DNA of 32,000 bases from Candidatus Scalindua sp. (GCA_031316235.1 JALDRA010000001.1:3330001-3362000); one strand, 5' to 3'; positions 6,017 through 13,841 are shown, numbered from the stretch's first letter. Made by a program: numbers and translations. The notes: generated from the letters alone by a model not told the origin.

Positions 6017-7063
6017 ATGTATACATATCTCGCCTTGCAAATCGGTATAGCCTTTCTTCTGGATCTTATCATTGGAGACCCGCGCTGGTTCCCCCATCCG
6101 GTAAGGTTGATAGGAAAGGGGATTGAATTACTTGAAATGATAGTGAGGTGGTTGTTTGGATTGGAGAGATTTAACGGTACCGTGTCTGCGGGGCATGTAA
6201 TTCCGGACAGAAAGAGAGAGAGGCTGGCAGGTATTGTCCTGACGGGGGCGATAGTATTCGGGACATACTTCATAACATACGAGATTGTAAGCTTTGGAAA
6301 ATACCTGGGGCAGTTGTGGGAGGTAGCTGTGGGTGCCATAATTATCTACTTTTCCCTCTCAACCCGGGATCTTTTGAGAGAAGCCAGGGGTGTCCTTCAT
6401 ACACTTAAATCCGGCAGAATCGTGCAGGCTCGCGAGAATCTCAGCAGAATTGTTGGAAGAGACACCGGAGAACTTGATGAAGAAAAAATTACAAGGGCCT
6501 GTGTGGAAACCATTGCCGAAAATAGTGTAGACGGGATAATAGCGCCGATTTTTTATGCCGTCTTGGGAGGACCTGCGCTTGTAATGGCCTATAAGGCAAT
6601 TAACACACTCGATTCAATGGTTGGGTACAAAAATGCCGAGTACCTTCATCTTGGATGGGCATCTGCCAGGTTCGACGACATCGTAAACTTTCTTCCTGCC
6701 AGGCTCGCAGCCATACTGTTACCACTGTCTGCCTGGATGTGTGGAGCAAGTTTTTTCCGGTCGATACGAATAATTAAAAGAGATGGACAAAAACATCCGA
6801 GTCCCAATAGCGGAATTCCTGAGGCTGCAGTTGCTGGGGCATTGGGCATAAGACTTGGGGGAACCAGTTCGTACCGCGGAGTTGTCACGGAAAAACCCTT
6901 TATCGGTGATGAAGAGCAGAAGGTAGGTATTGATCATATAAGAGATACGGCAAATATTGTGTTTGTAGCATCAGTTTTGTCAGTCTCTACCGGTATTATA
7001 GCTTTATTGATAGTTTCTAAAATTATTCAGTGGCTGATCTGGGCAGGTTCAGTTCAACCATAA
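6017..7063 (+). CDS. cbiB: Adenosylcobinamide-phosphate synthase (CbiB; called CobD in the Pseudomonas nomenclature)
   Basis: LLDLIIGDPRWFPHPVRLIGKGIELLE at the N-terminus, IAENSVDGIIAPIFY, and PNSGIPEAAVAGALGIRLGG. It is a multi-pass membrane protein and starts 22 nt after cobQ. Confidence 0.85.
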   Translation: MYTYLALQIGIAFLLDLIIGDPRWFPHPVRLIGKGIELLEMIVRWLFGLERFNGTVSAGHVIPDRKRERLAGIVLTGAIVFGTYFITYEIVSFGKYLGQLWEVAVGAIIIYFSLSTRDLLREARGVLHTLKSGRIVQARENLSRIVGRDTGELDEEKITRACVETIAENSVDGIIAPIFYAVLGGPALVMAYKAINTLDSMVGYKNAEYLHLGWASARFDDIVNFLPARLAAILLPLSAWMCGASFFRSIRIIKRDGQKHPSPNSGIPEAAVAGALGIRLGGTSSYRGVVTEKPFIGDEEQKVGIDHIRDTANIVFVASVLSVSTGIIALLIVSKIIQWLIWAGSVQP

Positions 7064-7084
7064 GGTTTCTGTCCAAATAGTATG

Positions 7085-7140
7085 CAGTAAGTGGTAAATG
7101 GTAAGCAGTGAACAGTAGGCAATATGCAAAATAGGAACAG
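7085..7140. repeat. Heptamer-periodic tract (about 8 units, consensus CAGTAAG)
   Basis: CAGTAAG TGGTAAA TGGTAAG CAGTGAA CAGTAGG CAATATG CAAAATA GGAACAG, read directly from the sequence. It is intergenic, just after cbiB. Confidence 0.3.
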
Positions 7141-7356
7141 ACCCTGAAGTCTTAAGTGTTCACCTTAGCATTTCAGATTGCAGACTGCGGAATGCATTCA
7201 TTGCAAATTTAACAATTAGCAGTAAATGTATTGTGAAATATTATGATCTTAAAATGGTCAACTGTGTGTTTATGAGCGATAACGAAAGCAGATTAAAAAA
7301 ATTTTTTATAGATTTGATACAGAAGCAGTATCCTCCGGTATGAAACTTTTTAGGTG

Positions 7357-7473
7357 AGTATACTAAAACCTATTTGGTTTTCGGTTTTACCGGAAACCAA
7401 ATCTTGGTTGCAGTCATACTCGCTCAATTTTATCTCGGATTTTATCCGAAAACCATTATAAGATGAGTATACT
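7357..7473 (+). repeat. Intergenic structured repeat, copy A (lacks the central module)
   Basis: AGTATACTAAAACCtATTTGGTTTTCGGTTTTACCGGAAACCAAATCtTGGTtgcagtcaTACTCGCTCAATTTTATCTCGGATTTTATCCGAAAACCATTaTAAGATGAGTATACT. Relative to copies B and C it lacks about 28 nt (GGTATCCCCGGACAAAAAGCGCCGAGGACTT). Confidence 0.85.
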
Positions 7474-7780
7474 TTGAAAAATGGATGCAAAGAGAGGATT
7501 GGCTTGAACATGTAGCCATACAGAAAGTTTGAACTGACGTACATTATAAACTTTATAAACCTTAATACTCCGATGTCTCTATTTCAAAAAGAAGAAATTA
7601 ATCAAGAGTTATTAAAACTAAAGAATAAAACAAAAAGCAGGAGGCCTGAATATCATTTAGAAATCATCACAGATTAAAATGCTGATCCTTACTTTTTCTC
7701 TTTTTATTTCTTTTACTTAAACTCTTTTCAAGTGAATTCCCGTCATTATGAAAAACCAAAACCAGACGAAAGATTAATTC

Positions 7781-8232
7781 GTGAGTCCACAAGATATTAT
7801 TGATGAAAGTTTTCACATTATTGAAGACCTTGCAGACTTTGATAAAATCCCGAAGACGTCCAGGCAGATGATACAGAAAAAAACGGTGAAATTCTGGGAG
7901 ATTGTGATGGGGGTTGTTGTAAAGGTATCAGTTCCGGAGGGAGAGGAGTTGGTGAAGAAGACCTTTAACTGACACCCAGGTATTATGGGGGGGGGCTATT
8001 TCCATTATCGGGACGTCTGGTATTGTAAAACCCATGTCTCTGGATGCATTCAATGTCTCTCTGGTGTGTGAATTAAATGTTGCAAAAGCTTCGGGATATG
8101 AGACAATCGTGCTTGTTCCGGGTGGTATTGGTGAAAGAGCTTTATCAAAACCAGCAGATGATATCTTAATGAACATATGCGGGAGGGAGTGTGTCGTCCT
8201 GCTGTTATCGGTGTTTCAAAGGATTATAGAGA
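7781..8232 (+). pseudogene. cbiD: Cobalt-precorrin-5B methyltransferase (cbiD) relic: central block only, with an in-frame stop and a homopolymer frameshift
   Basis: The frame from 7781 reads ...IPKTSRQMIQKK...VVKVSVPEGEELVKKTFN, then TGA (7970..7972), then HPGIMGGG. After the G9 run at 7987..7995 the match continues in the +1 frame: AISIIGTSGIVKPMSLDAFNVSLVCELNVAKASGYETIVLVPGGIGERAL. This parallels the CbiD core as I remember it from Salmonella ([35 protein letters not shown]...LVPGNHGERF). The first ~130 and last ~150 residues of a normal CbiD have no counterpart. Confidence 0.6.
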
Positions 8233-8880
8233 GTGGGAAAAAAGCTTGTAAACAAAATTACTATTGTTGGTTGTGGGCCAGGTTCGAAAAAACATATCAC
8301 AGGCCTGGCTATGCAGCGAATCAAGAATGCGGATTCACTGATCGGCAGCAGAAGGCTGCTGGAATTATTTTCAGACATAGAGACTGACAAATATACGGTC
8401 AACCGAAATTACCGATTGCTTATTATGCGCATTATCTCCTTGAGTAAACGTAAAAAAGTTGTTGTCCTTGTAAGTGGAGACCCGGGTTTTTTTAGTTACT
8501 CAAAGCGCATAATAGATAAAGTTGGTCTGGATAATTGTGAAATTATTCCCGGTATCAGCTCGATTCAACTTGCTTTTGCATCAATTGGAAAGAGCTGGAA
8601 CGACGCCTGTTTTGTGAGTCTGCAGGGGAGAAAGGGTGAATTTCCCGAGCTCATAAAAAAGGTGAAAGAACAGAAAAAAGTTGCGGTATTAACTGATAAA
8701 TCCAATAATCTGAAACTTATTTACAAGGGACTGATGAGTGAAGGGATTCGCGACAGGATGGTTTATGTCTGTGAAGATCTCTCTTTAAAAACGGAAAGGA
8801 TACGCTGTTTTAAGTTGACTTCCATTCAGAGAGTACAGGTGAGGGGCCTGAATGTCATTATTATTGTAGATGAGGGCTAG
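8233..8880 (+). CDS. cbiE: Precorrin-6Y / cobalt-precorrin-7 C5-methyltransferase subunit (CbiE)
   Basis: ITIVGCGPGSKKHIT, VVVLVSGDPGFFSY and IPGISSIQLAFA are signatures of the tetrapyrrole methylase fold, and the length (215 aa) is CbiE-like. It uses a GTG start. No cbiT follows. Confidence 0.75.
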   Translation: MGKKLVNKITIVGCGPGSKKHITGLAMQRIKNADSLIGSRRLLELFSDIETDKYTVNRNYRLLIMRIISLSKRKKVVVLVSGDPGFFSYSKRIIDKVGLDNCEIIPGISSIQLAFASIGKSWNDACFVSLQGRKGEFPELIKKVKEQKKVAVLTDKSNNLKLIYKGLMSEGIRDRMVYVCEDLSLKTERIRCFKLTSIQRVQVRGLNVIIIVDEG

Positions 8881-8931
8881 TCCGTAAATAGAGCAATCCG
8901 GCCACTCGCAAAAGGACCCTTGATTTTTCGC

Positions 8932-8959
8932 TTGACAGATACATTTAAAATGATATGGT
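8932..8959 (+). promoter_or_regulatory. Sigma-70-like promoter candidate for the riboswitch leader
   Basis: TTGACA (8932..8937), a 16-nt spacer, then TATGGT (8954..8959), about 35 nt upstream of the proposed aptamer. Confidence 0.3.
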
Positions 8960-8990
8960 TGTTAACAAGTAAGTTTTGTTTGTGTAATCA

Positions 8991-9089
8991 GTGAGACATT
9001 ATCGGATTATGCTAAAGGCTAACCTTGAGTGATCAGGGGGCGCAAAGTAAAGGGTCTTTAACGTACATGGATGTGCGTGGAGATGTCAC
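8991..9089 (+). promoter_or_regulatory. Candidate GEMM-I cyclic-di-nucleotide riboswitch aptamer
   Basis: GGCUAA (9017..9022), the hairpin CCUUGA-GUGA-UCAGGG (9023..9038, GNRA loop) and GG-CGCAAAG (9039..9047) mirror the Vc2 core GGCAAA-CCAUUC-GAAA-GAGUGG-GACGCAAAG. A second hairpin, ACGUACAU-GG-AUGUGCGU, lies at 9061..9078. A possible closing helix pairs 8991..8999 with 9083..9089. Confidence 0.5.
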
Positions 9090-9127
9090 GATATACTCCA
9101 TGTTTTCAAGGAAGAGTTTCGCCATTA

Positions 9128-9196
9128 AAGACAGCCTTACTGCCGGGGATTTGAATGTGTTATCACATCTTGGGCGGTAAGGCTGTCTTTTTTTTT
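9128..9196 (+). terminator. Rho-independent terminator (expression platform of the leader)
   Basis: GACAGCCTTAC (9131..9141) pairs with GTAAGGCTGTC (9177..9187). An inner ATGTG/CACAT stem extends the hairpin. A run of nine T follows immediately at 9188..9196. It lies 100 nt upstream of the ATG at 9297. Confidence 0.75.
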
Positions 9197-9296
9197 GGAA
9201 GGAGGTGTACCGGATCTGAGCAGTTATATAAACAGTGGTACGTTTTTTATTTTTTTCTAAATTACAGTCGACCTACTTTAAAGGGGGGGGGAGAAA

Positions 9297-11195
9297 ATGA
9301 ACAGTAAATTATTAAGGTTTCTTCTTTTTACGGGCTCTATGTCATTTGTCTTTGGCGCGTATTCCTTGACGAATGTACAAGCCGATGAAGAACTATCAAA
9401 CAGTCAAGGAGCAAACACAACATTAGTTTCCGGATATGAAGAAGAGTCCGTTTCTGAAAATCAGGAAGAACCGGAAACAACTCCTGGTACAGGGATTGGA
9501 ACGGCAACTCCTGAAGTCGATCTCCATATCTACACACAGGATGAGGTTTCAACTGCAATCCGGCTCGAAGGTAACAGTGCGATTGACGGGTCTTACCGGG
9601 AAAACACGACGATTTTACGAGACAGCAGCGCGTTAAGGATCCTTGATGATGATTCCGGTGAGAGTGTTACGATTAAAGAAAATGGTAATGTGGGTATCGG
9701 TGCCTCGAACCCGTTACAGAAACTCCATATTGGTGGTACTCCGGGGTCAGATGGAGTTATGTTCCCTGATGGTACCGTGCAGACCACTGCAAGTGTCGGT
9801 GGTCCAGCAGGTCCGGCAGGTCCGGCAGGTCCGGCGGGTCCGGCGGGTCCGGCAGGTCCGGCAGGTTCTAATGGAGCAGATGGTGCGGCAGGTCCGATAG
9901 GCCCGATAGGTCCGGTTGGTCCGGTTGGTCCGGTTGGTCCCATCGGTCCACAGGGGCTACCGGGAGATTCACATTGGCTCCTCAACGGGACGAGCACATA
10001 TTATAACGCCGGTGATGTCGGTATTGGAACCAACAGCCCGGTCTGTGACCTTCATGTTCTCCGTTCCGGTGGGAACAACCGTCCACCTACCACATCAGGC
10101 ATTCAATTTAATAAATCAAACCTGATCGTTAAAGCGGATGAAGCTGTAGTAGGCCCGGTAATTCCCGGTCCCGTGATTCCAGGCCCGGTTATTCCACCGG
10201 TAATAATCCCGCTTTTCACTCCGTACTGGTTCTACACGGCAGTTGGAGGTACCGGTTCGACGGGAATCGTGGACGTTGACACAAGATTTGTGAGAAAAAC
10301 AAATACCGATCTCCATTTTCAGACCCAGTCTACTATTAAAACAGGTGCTGTTTCCACGCAGATGACCCTGGACAAGGATGGCGATCTCGGTATCGGCACG
10401 ACAGTCCCGGAATTTAAACTGCACATCCCGGAGGGTTCAGATGTAAATGTAACGACAGGGGGATTTATCGTCCTTGGTTCAAGAACGGGTACGAATATGG
10501 GGATTGATAACAATGAGATGCAGGCCCGTGTCAATGGTGCGGCTGCACAGATGCACTTAAACTGGGAAGGTGGAAATGTTGCTCTCGGTGGTCCGTTAAG
10601 GGGGAGAGGTACCAGTCTCAGTGGAGATTCAAGTGATGGCGTACAAATCGGTACTGGTCTCGCCGGATGGGATGTTTATGTAAATGATGATTTATGGGTT
10701 GCGGATCAGACGAGTACGAAGATACTCCACATTCGGGGTGGATCTGACCTCTCGGAAGAGTTTGATATCAGTAAACCGCATAACCTGAAAGAGTATATCA
10801 AAAATGAGGAAGAGTTTAAGATTGAGCCTGGTATGGTTGCATGTATTGACACCAGGAACTCAGGTAAGCTCATGGTAAGCAGTAAGGCATATGATCGAAC
10901 AGTAGCGGGCATCATCAGCGGAGCAGGTGGTATCAACACCGGGATGCTTATGGGGCAGGAAGGTACTGTTGCCGATGGTGAGTATCCCGTAGCCTTGACC
11001 GGACGTGTTTACTGTAAGGCTGATGCTGCGTATGGTGCTATTCAGCCTGGAGATCTTCTCACCACTTCTGATACTCCCGGATATGTGATGAAGGTAAGTG
11101 ATTATGACAGGGCCCATGGGGCTACTATCGGCAAGGCGATGTCAGCCCTTGACCAGGGAACCGGATTGGTTCTGGTTCTTGTGTCATTACAGTAA
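9297..11195 (+). CDS. Secreted collagen-repeat, tail-fibre-like protein
   Basis: Signal peptide [29 protein letters not shown]. Nineteen uninterrupted Gly-X-Y triplets. Three copies of a G(N/D)(V/L)GIG..(N/S/V)P...LH(I/V) motif ([51 protein letters not shown]). Also GIDNNEMQA and a C-terminal block ...[11 protein letters not shown]...[15 protein letters not shown]...[13 protein letters not shown]...[15 protein letters not shown]...[10 protein letters not shown] strong SD (GGGGGGGGGAG) precedes the ATG. Confidence 0.85.
9801..9971 (+). repeat. Collagen-coding 9-bp tandem repeats
   Basis: GGTCC(A/G)GC(A/G) occurs 7 times (9801..9863), almost identical at the DNA level. It is followed by GGTCCGATA/GGCCCGATA, GGTCCGGTT three times, and further units. 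Translation is (GPA)7 GSN GAD GAA (GPI)2 (GPV)3 [12 protein letters not shown]. Confidence 0.9.
10152..10211 (+). repeat. 15-bp imperfect tandem repeat encoding (GPVIP)3-PVIIP
   Basis: GGCCCGGTAATTCCC GGTCCCGTGATTCCA GGCCCGGTTATTCCA CCGGTAATAATCCCG. The units differ mostly at synonymous positions. Confidence 0.7.
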
Positions 11196-11230
11196 TTACG
11201 TTTTACAAACCTTAATAAGGGAGTATGAAT

Positions 11231-12247
11231 ATGAAGAAATTAAACATACGTTACCTGATGATGTGCAGCTTGTTCCTGCTGCTCACATTGCCGGTTAGCA
11301 TCATGGCTCAGGATGCCGGAGACCCGTATGATCCGTATGCACCCTATGATAACGGTGTGCCTGAAGGGTGGAAGGTTATTGAAGGAGATATCCTTGTCAG
11401 AATCTCAGAACCGGAAGGTACGTTTGAAAGCAATTTGTGGTCAAACCGGAGAGTTCCGTATCAATTCGATTCGAATGTATCATCTCTTAATCAGACCCGG
11501 GCAGTCAATGCCATGGCTGAATTGGAGGCAGTATCAAACATAGATTTCAGGCCGCGAAACGGTGAGGGCAACTATGTCCATTTTCAGAATTCAACCGTAA
11601 ATAATTCTGCCGTTGGCATGAAAGGTGGAAGACAGGTTATCAATATCGTTAGCTGGTCTTCAAGGTTTATCATAGTACATGAATGCATGCATGCAGCAGG
11701 GTTCTGGCATGAACAATCCCGGCCTGATCGTGACAGCTTTGTGACCATTCATCTGGATAGAATTCCATCTGATAAGGAACACAATTTTGACAAGAAATCT
11801 TCGGCTGATGTCTTGGGGACTTATGATTTTGATTCTGTCATGCATTATGATCAATGCGCTTTCTCGGAGTGTTCTAATTGCAGTTCAAATTTGAGTAGCT
11901 GTAGAACCATAACGGTGAAGTCACCCAATACATCACAGCAGGGTGTTATCGGGCAGAGAGACCATTTGAGTGATCTGGATCAGCTTACGATGCAATATCT
12001 CTATCCGCCAAGTAACTGGAGGTTTGTCAATGGTTCTTACTCGAAGGCACCTCCGGCTAACTTTATTACTTTTCTGCAGATAGGCACATTTCATCTACCT
12101 GCAAAGACGATTAGTAAGGGTGTGAGTGTCGTGCCGACAGGAGGGACGCTTATTGTTATGCCCGGAACATATAGCGGAGCGACTACCTATAGCAAGGCTA
12201 TGACCTTGAGGGGGAGTTCTCTGCTTGGGACTGTGACTATCAGATGA
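11231..12247 (+). CDS. Astacin-family (M12A) zinc metalloprotease zymogen with a C-terminal beta-helix-cap-like tag
   Basis: HECMHAAGFWHEQSRPDRD matches the astacin signature HExxHxxGFxHExxRxDRD. The Met-turn is DSVMHY. Upstream, IEGDI resembles the propeptide Asp-switch (FxGD). The signal peptide is MKKLNIRYLMMCSLFLLLTLPVSIMA. I prefer ATG 11231 over 11225 because of its spacing from GGGAG (11219..11223). Confidence 0.85.
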   Translation: MKKLNIRYLMMCSLFLLLTLPVSIMAQDAGDPYDPYAPYDNGVPEGWKVIEGDILVRISEPEGTFESNLWSNRRVPYQFDSNVSSLNQTRAVNAMAELEAVSNIDFRPRNGEGNYVHFQNSTVNNSAVGMKGGRQVINIVSWSSRFIIVHECMHAAGFWHEQSRPDRDSFVTIHLDRIPSDKEHNFDKKSSADVLGTYDFDSVMHYDQCAFSECSNCSSNLSSCRTITVKSPNTSQQGVIGQRDHLSDLDQLTMQYLYPPSNWRFVNGSYSKAPPANFITFLQIGTFHLPAKTISKGVSVVPTGGTLIVMPGTYSGATTYSKAMTLRGSSLLGTVTIR

Positions 12248-12361: not shown

Positions 12362-12476
12362 TATCTTGCCGGGCTGGAGGTCTGTTTTTCCGAAGAGTGT
12401 TTTGCTTCTCTTTATTCGCGTCAGGAACAGCGAGACTGGTAAAAGAGGTTGCGTGAAAGAGGAAGAGGTGGAGGGA

Positions 12477-13841
12477 ATGAGGAAGATTGAAACGTACAAC
12501 ATCGTGATCGTCACCATATTGCTGCAGCTGGCGTCTTTGTTTTGCCCGATTGTCAGTGGCGCAGACGACACTTCAATCCGTTGTCACAGGGAGCCGTTTG
12601 TCCTGGATTCCGGTGTCCATGAAAATCTGCGGAAGGAAAGCTCTGTGCCATTTCGAGAAACGATGATAATTCCTGGTGTTCCCTGGATGCAGATCCATGT
12701 GAGTGCTTCTAACCTGGGAGAAAGGAGCTGTATTGTAATAACGTCTCTCTATGACGGGGGGCAGCAACGTCTCGACACTCAAAGTCTCGTTCAGTGGCAC
12801 AATTCAAGTGCGTATCTTAATGGTGAAGCAGTAGAGATAGCACTAGTTGTTGGCCCGGGGGAGTCAGGAATCTTTTTCCGTATCGAGGAGATTACGGTTG
12901 GTGAGTGGATTGGGAATGGTGGACCTGCAGACGGATCTTCTTCTCTTCTGTTTCAGGAAAGTATTTGTGGGAGTTCTGACAATCGAGTCTCATCAGAAGA
13001 TCCGGCCGTTGGTCGCATTATGCCAGCCGGCTGCACCGGTTGGATAATCTCAAATGGTGCGTTCCTGACTGCCGGTCACTGCAGCGGTATTGGTTATGTG
13101 CTGCAATTTAACGTACCCGCATCGTTGCCTGATGGAACGCCGCTTAATCCTCTCCCGGAAGATCAGTATCCCGTAACGTATCTCGATTTTCACAATAATG
13201 ATGAGGGAGATGACTGGGCAATATTTCAGACAGGGACAAATAATAAAGGCCAGCAGGCGATAGAAAGACAAAGGGCTTTTTATCGTGTAACACATGACAT
13301 ATCTCCCGAGAGTGTCAGTGTTACCGGATACGGAATAGATTCTCTCCCTCGGGGAACAACGGGAGGCCGCAATTCAGATAACCAGACACAGCAAACTCAC
13401 ACTGGTCACTATATAGGAAAGAATATTGTGAGGCGTACGAAAGTCATAATTGAATATTTAGTAGATACTCTGGGTGGTAACTCTGGTGCTCCTGTTATTA
13501 TTACCCAGGAAGGCCTGACACTTGGAATCCACACCCATTCGGGCTGCAATCCTCCCCATTTCGGGAATCAGGGTACCGGTTTTCAACAGCGCGGTCTGAA
13601 AAATGCAATCCAGACTTTTCCCGGGGTAAATGTGGAATATGTAGACAAAGGTTACCCTGAACTTGCTGTCCGGAAAGACGGTACCGTTTTTAGACCCTTT
13701 AATACGGTGCAGGAGGGTGTCAATGCAGCATCTGCCGGAGCAGTCATCAGCATTGTAAAGGGCTCCTATCATGAGTCGGTTACCATTACCAAGAATGTAG
13801 TTATTGAAGCCCCCGTTGGCACGGTTATTATCGGTCAATAG
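12477..13841 (+). CDS. Secreted trypsin-fold (S1 family) serine protease with an N-terminal pro-region and a C-terminal beta-helix-cap-like tag
   Basis: Catalytic-triad contexts are FLTAGHC (His), DDWAIF (Asp) and TLGGNSGAPVI (Ser). ATG 12477 is preceded by GGTGGAGGGA and gives the signal peptide MRKIETYNIVIVTILLQLASLFCPIVSGA. The track start at 12366 is probably too far upstream. Confidence 0.8.
   Translation: MRKIETYNIVIVTILLQLASLFCPIVSGADDTSIRCHREPFVLDSGVHENLRKESSVPFRETMIIPGVPWMQIHVSASNLGERSCIVITSLYDGGQQRLDTQSLVQWHNSSAYLNGEAVEIALVVGPGESGIFFRIEEITVGEWIGNGGPADGSSSLLFQESICGSSDNRVSSEDPAVGRIMPAGCTGWIISNGAFLTAGHCSGIGYVLQFNVPASLPDGTPLNPLPEDQYPVTYLDFHNNDEGDDWAIFQTGTNNKGQQAIERQRAFYRVTHDISPESVSVTGYGIDSLPRGTTGGRNSDNQTQQTHTGHYIGKNIVRRTKVIIEYLVDTLGGNSGAPVIITQEGLTLGIHTHSGCNPPHFGNQGTGFQQRGLKNAIQTFPGVNVEYVDKGYPELAVRKDGTVFRPFNTVQEGVNAASAGAVISIVKGSYHESVTITKNVVIEAPVGTVIIGQ

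Follow-up and report, generated by a model that had tools for sequence, protein, structure and literature searches.

A candidate class I c-di-GMP riboswitch with an overlapping terminator ahead of a probable operon for a collagen-like fibre and two proteases in Candidatus Scalindua

In a 32,000-nt stretch of DNA from Candidatus Scalindua sp. (GCA_031316235.1, JALDRA010000001.1:3330001-3362000; hereafter the window), genes for a secreted collagen-like protein and two proteases are preceded by a leader in which a first-pass annotation, made by reading the sequence, had placed a GEMM-I cyclic-dinucleotide riboswitch and an intrinsic terminator. The locus raises the question of whether the leader RNA is such a sensor, which ligand it would bind and in which direction it would act on the genes behind it. 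The proposal was borne out by family membership: the leader of the window, those of two syntenic orthologous loci and those of two paralogous loci all scored above the Rfam gathering threshold for RF01051 (c-di-GMP-I/GEMM-I). Positions 9007-9147 are accordingly read as a class I cyclic di-GMP (c-di-GMP) riboswitch aptamer, predicted to bind its ligand, which together with an overlapping terminator at 9127-9196 would form a transcriptional ON switch. A probability of about 0.8 is assigned to this reading. The order of elements in the leader is promoter (8932-8959), aptamer, overlapping terminator and the ATG of the first gene (9297).

Aptamer anatomy and predicted ligand

The whole window was scanned on both strands with the 4227 families of Rfam 15 at their gathering thresholds. 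A single match was returned, to RF01051 at 9007-9147 (+), with 50.9 bits (E 2.6e-07), the gathering score being 35. It spans model positions 1-87 without truncation and is thus a match to the full model, and RF01051 was the best-scoring member of its clan for the window. The first-pass annotation had named a search with this model as the check on its proposal, and the match lies above threshold. The class II c-di-GMP model (RF01786), presumed to be among the 4227 families, gave no match in the window scan. The variant classes c-di-GMP-I-GGC (RF03167) and c-di-GMP-I-UAU (RF03168), whose pocket bases are altered (A47G, and G20U + C92U, respectively), were considered and excluded; RF01051 was the best clan model and the pocket reads G/A/C.

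The anatomy of the aptamer was taken from the Rfam alignment and from extraction of the model pairs. Positions are given in Vc2 numbering, and the roles of those in the 5' core (9017-9047, +) follow published descriptions (PMC6140456, PMC5888326, PMC1950547). This core had been proposed as GGCUAA, a hairpin CCUUGA-GUGA-UCAGGG and GG-CGCAAAG, and it aligned to RF01051 in just that way. G20 corresponds to G9017, and G21-C22 (9018-9019) pair with G45-C46 (9042-9043). P1a comprises 6 bp (9023-9028 with 9033-9038) and is capped by a GUGA tetraloop of the GYRA/GNRA type (9029-9032). The AAA linker follows at 9044-9046, its first base being A47 (A9044); this linker between P1 and P2 is missing in only 2 of 322 GEMM examples (PMC1950547). 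The 5' strand of P2 (AGUA-A-AGGGUC-UUU, 9046-9059) contains a bulged A9050 and pairs with the 3' strand (AAAGAC-AG-CCUUACU, 9127-9141). The 10 model pairs of P2 are without exception Watson-Crick, and the helix is lengthened to 13 bp by another three U:A pairs, added by inspection for the constrained fold. The place of C92, derived by way of the consensus of each of two variant families, RF03167 "GGC" and RF03168 "UAU", is C9143. A short 3' strand of P1 (C9144-G9145 with U9010-G9011) was read by eye from the sequences. The P2 3' strand, C92 and the P1 3' strand make up the 3' half of the aptamer (9127-9147, +) which, from the alignment, pair extraction and folding, doubles as the 5' arm of the terminator.

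Every string quoted in the first-pass annotation was found where it had been placed; parts of the structure drawn from them had to be replaced. The hairpin at 9061-9078, taken there for P2, sits within a variable and poorly conserved insertion, and the Rfam alignment puts P2 at 9046-9059 with 9127-9141. A closing helix between 8991-8999 and 9083-9089 requires a bulge, and neither of its strands is conserved in the two orthologous leaders described below (L001 and L003). The element of about 100 nt that was thought to end near 9090 in fact has its 3' border at 9147. The insertion itself is lineage-specific and occupies the tip of P2 (9060-9126, +). It leaves 66 nt unaligned by Rfam, compared with 12 in the consensus, or 67 nt outside the 13-bp helix. 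When RNAalifold was applied to the insertion alone, two small hairpins only and no convincing conserved fold were obtained. An origin as a mobile or repeated element was also considered and rejected, since no second copy was found by blastn-short against the window and all loci.

The window RNA corresponds to the receptor-less GYRA type of GEMM-I RNA with a terminator that overlaps P2 (RF01051; prototype V. cholerae Vc2; Weinberg et al. 2007, Fig. 2B, PMC1950547). Shared features are the full-model match, the GUGA-capped P1a, the AAA linker, G20/A47/C92, the lack of the 11-nt tetraloop receptor, the bulged A (here A9050) near the base of P2 and the competition of the terminator 5' arm with the P2 3' strand. 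In GYRA-loop members the receptor is almost never present, and a bulged A near the P2 base is frequent (PMC1950547). The window and its orthologues differ from the GEMM-I consensus in carrying 66-73 nt at the P2 tip rather than 12-14 nt, and the window differs from Vc2 by A23U and A43G in the internal loop (our mapping). Judged by its model match and anatomy, the leader RNA is a genuine but ordinary member of the well-known GEMM-I family.

The ligand-contacting bases of the window are canonical (G20 = G9017, A47 = A9044, C92 = C9143), and pair extraction gave the same three bases in 5/5 leaders (the window, L001, L003, L018 and L020). In Vc2, the G-alpha base of c-di-GMP is paired with G20 and its G-beta base with C92, the latter in Watson-Crick fashion, and A47 touches the ligand (PMC5888326, PMC6140456). 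GEMM-Ib RNAs, which sense cyclic GMP-AMP (cGAMP), carry A in place of G20 (A14 in Gs1761), and wild-type Vc2 with G20 binds cGAMP with a Kd of ~10 uM compared with picomolar for c-di-GMP (PMC6140456). The signature A20 was absent, G being found at 9017 and at the equivalent positions of L001, L003, L018 and L020. With G rather than A at position 20, the predicted ligand is c-di-GMP and not 3',3'-cGAMP.

Overlapping terminator and proposed switch

The intrinsic terminator (9127-9196, +) was defined by folding and by comparison of the stem over the five leaders. It consists of a stem formed by 9127-9154 with 9163-9190 and a U9 tract at 9188-9196. The hairpin folds at -43.6 kcal/mol, compared with -17.7 +/- 3.2 for mononucleotide shuffles, and the folding z-score of the 236-nt leader is -6.4. 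The hairpin and its U9 tract had been recognised in the first-pass annotation and are real; their placement some 40 nt downstream of the aptamer was wrong, as the terminator overlaps the 3' half of the aptamer. Mutually exclusive pairings, for which a folding check had been suggested there, were found: the terminator 5' arm (9127-9154) takes up the entire P2 3' strand together with C92. As the short 3' strand of P1 also falls within this arm, aptamer and terminator exclude each other. This corrected anatomy, with full overlap of the two structures, strengthens the riboswitch interpretation.

For the full leader (8967-9196), the terminator state was computed at -85.5 kcal/mol; a fold in which the aptamer pairs were enforced reached -61.6 kcal/mol. 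The terminator state is far more stable, and termination would therefore be the default in the absence of ligand. Binding of the ligand would most likely turn expression on by anti-termination, also in vivo, and the switch should be kinetic in character. The arrangement has precedent: in 78 of 322 GEMM RNAs a terminator is in competition with P2's 3' side, and in these ligand is predicted to raise expression (PMC1950547).

The proposed sequence of events is as follows. Transcription would begin from the promoter at 8932-8959, and the earliest structure to fold would be P1a with the G21-C22/G45-C46 pairs. Once the long P2 insertion had been transcribed, the P2 3' strand (9127-9141) and C92 (9143) would emerge and could close the pocket. 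With c-di-GMP bound, P2 and P1 would retain 9127-9145 and the 3' arm of the terminator (9163-9190) would be barred from invading; polymerase would then pass the U-tract, and the collagen-like fibre, astacin and trypsin-like genes would be transcribed. Without ligand, the much stabler terminator hairpin would form and transcription would end at 9188-9196. Ligand would have to be captured while polymerase is at roughly 9147-9190, in which interval c-di-GMP would lock P2 and block strand invasion.

The promoter is of the sigma-70 type and comprises a -35 hexamer TTGACA (8932-8937), a 16-nt spacer with TG at 8951-8952, and a -10 hexamer TATGGT (8954-8959), all on the + strand. Transcription would start near 8966. 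The hexamers, which had been noted in the first-pass annotation as TTGACA-N16-TATGGT, match at 10/12 positions with an extended -10 TG, and such hexamers alone occur at chance frequency (3 found, 2.3 expected). Credibility comes to the match solely from conservation of the block among the orthologues: it is 71% identical there compared with 39-47% for its flanks, and both the -35 TTGACAG and an AAAATGnTA block are kept in L001 and L003.

Directly after the terminator U-tract, and about 90 nt 5' of the start codon, lies a block resembling a Shine-Dalgarno (SD) sequence (GGAAGGAGGTG, 9197-9207, +). Conservation of this block (GGAAGGAGGUG) is 100% in L001 and L003, and the riboswitch-less paralogue L002 retains it as GAAAGGAGGTG. 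The equivalent in L020, AAAAGGAGGAGG, is a true SD, with an ATG 8 nt further on. A small-ORF (open reading frame) check of the leader found no conserved ORF after the block and no conserved small ORFs elsewhere in the leader; a 21-codon ORF at 9195-9260 has been retained in neither L001 nor L003. The block might be a standby site or an mRNA-stabilising 30S-binding site. The STAB-SD of cryIIIA is a comparison for a stabilising site of this kind.

Conservation among homologous leaders and alternative readings

Homologues were collected by a protein-based scan of one genome per species with the 632-aa protein encoded downstream of the leader as query. Its closest homologues were found in metagenome-assembled genomes (MAGs) of Candidatus Scalinduaceae and Scalindua, anammox Planctomycetota of the order Brocadiales. 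Five leaders were compared: that of the window, those of the orthologous loci L001 (Scalinduaceae MAG) and L003 (Scalindua sp.), and those of the paralogous loci L018 (Scalindua sp. AMX11) and L020 (the same Scalinduaceae MAG as L001). Synteny with the window is complete at L001 and L003, in the order cobD, tetrapyrrole methylase, leader, collagen-like, astacin, trypsin-like, sdhC and sdhA, and the better-conserved flanking enzymes (methylase, SdhC and SdhA) are 85-91% identical there. Their leaders matched RF01051 at 51.0 and 51.8 bits, respectively, with 72-73 nt unaligned in P2 (66-73 nt over the three orthologues). L020 (59.3 bits) and L018 (46.6 bits) each lie 5' of a collagen/Peptidase_S74 fibre gene and have shorter P2 insertions (27-34 nt, our extraction). 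The overlap of terminator and P2 is common to 5/5 leaders.

Over the window, L001 and L003, the 5' half of the aptamer is 91.5% identical and the 3' half 100%. The P2 insertion is 55% identical, the 5' leader 47% and the sequence upstream of the promoter 39%. This is the pattern expected of a functional aptamer. Among the five leaders, standard pairs occupy 50/50 cells of P2 and 29/30 of P1a, the sole mismatch being a C-C at the outermost P1a pair of L020. The changes seen in these two helices preserve pairing (U-G to C-G, G-C to G-U, A-U to G-U, U-A to U-G). In the terminator stem, 88.9% of cells are paired over the five leaders; in registers displaced by 1-3 columns on the 3' side the figure is 40-58%. 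Two pairs of the stem have changed in a truly compensatory way, both in L018, one from A-U to G-C and the other from G-C to A-U. Covariation in the terminator stem among these five closely related sequences is suggestive.

No aptamer was found upstream of the other homologues L002, L004/L021, L017, L022, L023, L025, L026 and L027, nor at the distant Phycisphaerae and other loci L005-L014. Only part of the fibre family would thus be under riboswitch control, because many homologous leaders lack an aptamer. A metagenome scan with GGCTAACCNNNNGNNANNNNGGGGGCGCAAAG returned two unrelated high-GC GEMM-I relatives only (L015 and L016) and no further orthologous leaders.

Locus L002 (5600-6015) lies in the same MAG as L001 and carries a collagen-like and astacin paralogue (77% identical). 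The distal leader, from the SD-like block to the ATG, is kept there and the aptamer and terminator are absent. Between paralogues the riboswitch module has therefore been acquired or lost in one piece.

Several observations weigh against a working riboswitch. The P2 insertion far exceeds the 12 nt of the consensus, and P1 of the window, read by eye, has about 2 bp only. Two highly conserved internal-loop positions of the Rfam alignment deviate, GGCUAA standing for GGCAAA and GGC for GAC before GCAAAG; the loop is therefore UAA/GGC where the consensus has AAA/GAC, and these two deviations, common to all three orthologues, could alter affinity. The canonical P2 was not recovered by thermodynamic folding alone, nor by RNAalifold on the three orthologous aptamers. 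Changes in the aptamer helices of the five leaders, which are close and too few for statistics, are one-sided and wobble-compatible, with no double compensatory ones; support for the aptamer fold therefore rests on the Rfam model score. Finally, no genes for c-di-GMP synthases or phosphodiesterases were found among the window ORFs scanned. The first-pass annotation had likewise seen no GGDEF, EAL or PilZ gene, and none of these, nor HD-GYP, was present among those ORFs.

Some of these points would fit an aptamer that is a decaying relic without ligand binding, the hairpin and U-tract then attenuating transcription constitutively or terminating the cobalamin-gene transcript that comes from upstream. 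The long, weakly conserved insertion, the two core substitutions, a preference for the terminator of ~24 kcal/mol and the lack of any aptamer at the close operon homologues L002 (77%) and L017 (62%) can all be read in this way. Decay is, however, difficult to reconcile with aptamer halves that are 91.5% and 100% identical in three species when adjacent non-coding sequence is at 39-55%, or with three ligand-contacting bases and all P2 pairs intact in five leaders. A dedicated, conserved promoter stands between the upstream gene and the aptamer, and a constitutive 28-bp terminator placed before a conserved operon would silence that operon. A relic is thus considered improbable.

A ligand that instead lowers expression, or acts on translation, for example through the GGAAGGAGGUG block or a G-rich SD, is considered very improbable. 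Polarity is not extrapolable, as class I c-di-GMP riboswitches work in both directions across species (PMC6366702), and a conserved, unexplained SD-like block does lie 3' of the terminator. That block is also conserved in the aptamer-less L002 and so is not part of the switch; the terminator 5' arm contains the P2 3' strand and C92 and is incompatible with the ligand-bound fold, and no alternative anti-terminator that ligand binding would release was found. Sensing of 3',3'-cGAMP, as a member of the GEMM-Ib subclass, or bispecificity has extremely little to recommend it, and we know of no Geobacter-like Hypr GGDEF context in this lineage. GEMM-Ib RNAs do belong to the same Rfam clan, many of them act in terminator-type ON switches, and with two internal-loop deviations from consensus specificity is not to be assumed. 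The Geobacter representatives (e.g. Gs1761; PMC6140456, PMC8835794) share the fold, but their defining A20 is missing here: position 20 is G in the window and the four related leaders, and Vc2 with G20 discriminates against cGAMP (PMC6140456). The c-di-GMP-responsive ON switch is therefore retained as the preferred reading.

Predicted target genes, related systems and neighbouring sequence

The first gene behind the leader (9297-11195, +) encodes a secreted, collagen-like and tail-fibre-like protein of 632 aa, as judged from domain and structure-profile matches and from PHROGs. The N-terminus is signal-peptide-like (by eye from the translation). GPX collagen repeats (PF01391) occupy residues 169-224. 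Some segments are similar to trimeric fibres: the Bdellovibrio fibre bd2133 was matched at residues 116-169 (8ond_A, E 5.5e-11) and BclA at residues 168-249, and there were hits to several tail-fibre families of PHROGs. The second gene (11225-12247, +) encodes an astacin-family (M12A) zinc metalloprotease (PF01400, E 3.8e-42) and the third (12366-13841, +) a trypsin-like serine protease (PF00089, E 5.3e-07). The gene content read in the first pass, a collagen-like protein and two proteases, was thus recovered as collagen repeat, astacin and trypsin-like domains.

The gaps between these genes are 30 nt (first to second) and 119 nt (second to third), and sdhCAB lies 393 nt beyond the third. No convincing terminator or strong promoter was found between the three genes; the stems present were short, with 5-7 pairs, and three lay within coding regions, while promoter-like sites matching at 9/12 positions occurred at chance frequency. 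The astacin gene is syntenic in L001, L002, L003 and L017 and the trypsin-like gene in L001, L003 and L017. The three genes probably constitute one operon, of which the trypsin-like gene would be the last.

A comparable target is that of Bc2 of Bacillus thuringiensis, a class I ON switch with read-through into the collagen adhesion gene cap/cbpA (PMC6366702, PMC7423583). The Bc2 target is a Gram-positive, wall-anchored protein that binds host collagen, whereas the Scalindua product is itself collagen-like (GPX, tail-fibre-like), belongs to a planctomycete and is predicted to be co-transcribed with two proteases. In Clostridioides difficile, surface proteins (the CD2831/CD3246 adhesins) and a secreted zinc metalloprotease (ZmpI/PPEP-1) are likewise under c-di-GMP riboswitches (PMC6366702, PMC6447587). 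Control is reciprocal there, the adhesins being ON via class II and the protease OFF via class I (PMC6366702), whereas in the present operon a single ON switch of class I would induce the fibre and both proteases together. Speculatively, such co-induction might have a role in maturation or in remodelling of the matrix, and not in release.

Descriptions of this class of riboswitch, of its ligand logic and of a terminator design that overlaps P2 go back to 2007-2008, and knowledge of the RNA is unchanged by this example. What goes beyond the routine is the anammox host, the occurrence of the same switch design before several Scalinduaceae collagen-like fibre genes and the unusually long P2 insertion. 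In a literature search of a limited collection, no report on riboswitches of this class in anammox bacteria, Scalindua or Planctomycetes was found. The local value lies in the predicted direct response to c-di-GMP of a secreted collagen-like fibre protein and two proteases in a Scalindua-like anammox bacterium, a second member of the fibre gene family being apparently wired alike in related genomes (L018 and L020). c-di-GMP is often invoked for aggregation and granulation of anammox bacteria, and a cis-acting RNA sensor before surface-fibre genes provides a concrete hypothesis, testable without genetic work on the host. The long insertion is a minor structural curiosity that could reveal the extent of distal P2 expansion that is tolerated by the fold.

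A wider proposal is offered as doubtful but worth stating. The class I c-di-GMP riboswitches of Scalinduaceae, which are marine anammox bacteria, may form a small RNA-level regulon that directly turns on collagen-like, tail-fibre-like surface fibres, here together with two secreted proteases, and the lineage-specific P2 insertion of ~70 nt may be a functional add-on, for instance one that delays folding or offers another binding site, and not a neutral expansion. If true, this regulon would directly tie c-di-GMP to remodelling of the cell surface or aggregate in an uncultured, biogeochemically important group.

Further observations were made on the fibre family and its surroundings. The C-terminal domain of the first gene product (residues 471-632, ~160 aa) has no Pfam match and is 50-63% identical in many proteins; homologues with a named source came from Planctomycetota and Phycisphaerae MAGs. 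In paralogues of this gene, Peptidase_S74 or Lcl_C is present in place of the domain. Residues 471-632 appear to form a modular domain, so far uncharacterised, of fibre-tip or chaperone type.

At L022, a c4-2 RNA (7796-7876, 56.7 bits) and an int-alpA RNA (8918-8986, 46.1 bits) adjoin resolvase, HTH_17 and D5_N/primase genes, directly 3' of a collagen/Lcl_C fibre gene; this region has the appearance of a mobile element that has integrated or of what remains of a prophage. A bAvd-type gene (PF22296/PF05635) is located at L025 2517-2873, two genes 5' of a gene whose product is homologous to the C-terminal domain of the fibre (P0002), and a reverse transcriptase (RVT_1) fragment at L027 9315-9653, near a Collagen/Collar gene. 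These two may be components of diversity-generating retroelements close to fibre paralogues in a Scalinduaceae MAG.

Upstream of the leader, the window contains 1.17 kb (7063-8233) with short ORFs only between cobD and the tetrapyrrole methylase gene. The N-terminus of an ORF at 8034-8387 gave a weak match to CbiD positions 170-208 (E 0.002), and at L003 ~4 kb separate cobD from the methylase gene. The stretch may reflect a cbiD remnant, a deletion or a frameshift. At L026, in a Scalinduaceae MAG, a Response_reg-HDOD-HD gene (6489-7772) lies ~1 kb 3' of a collagen/Peptidase_S74 paralogue.

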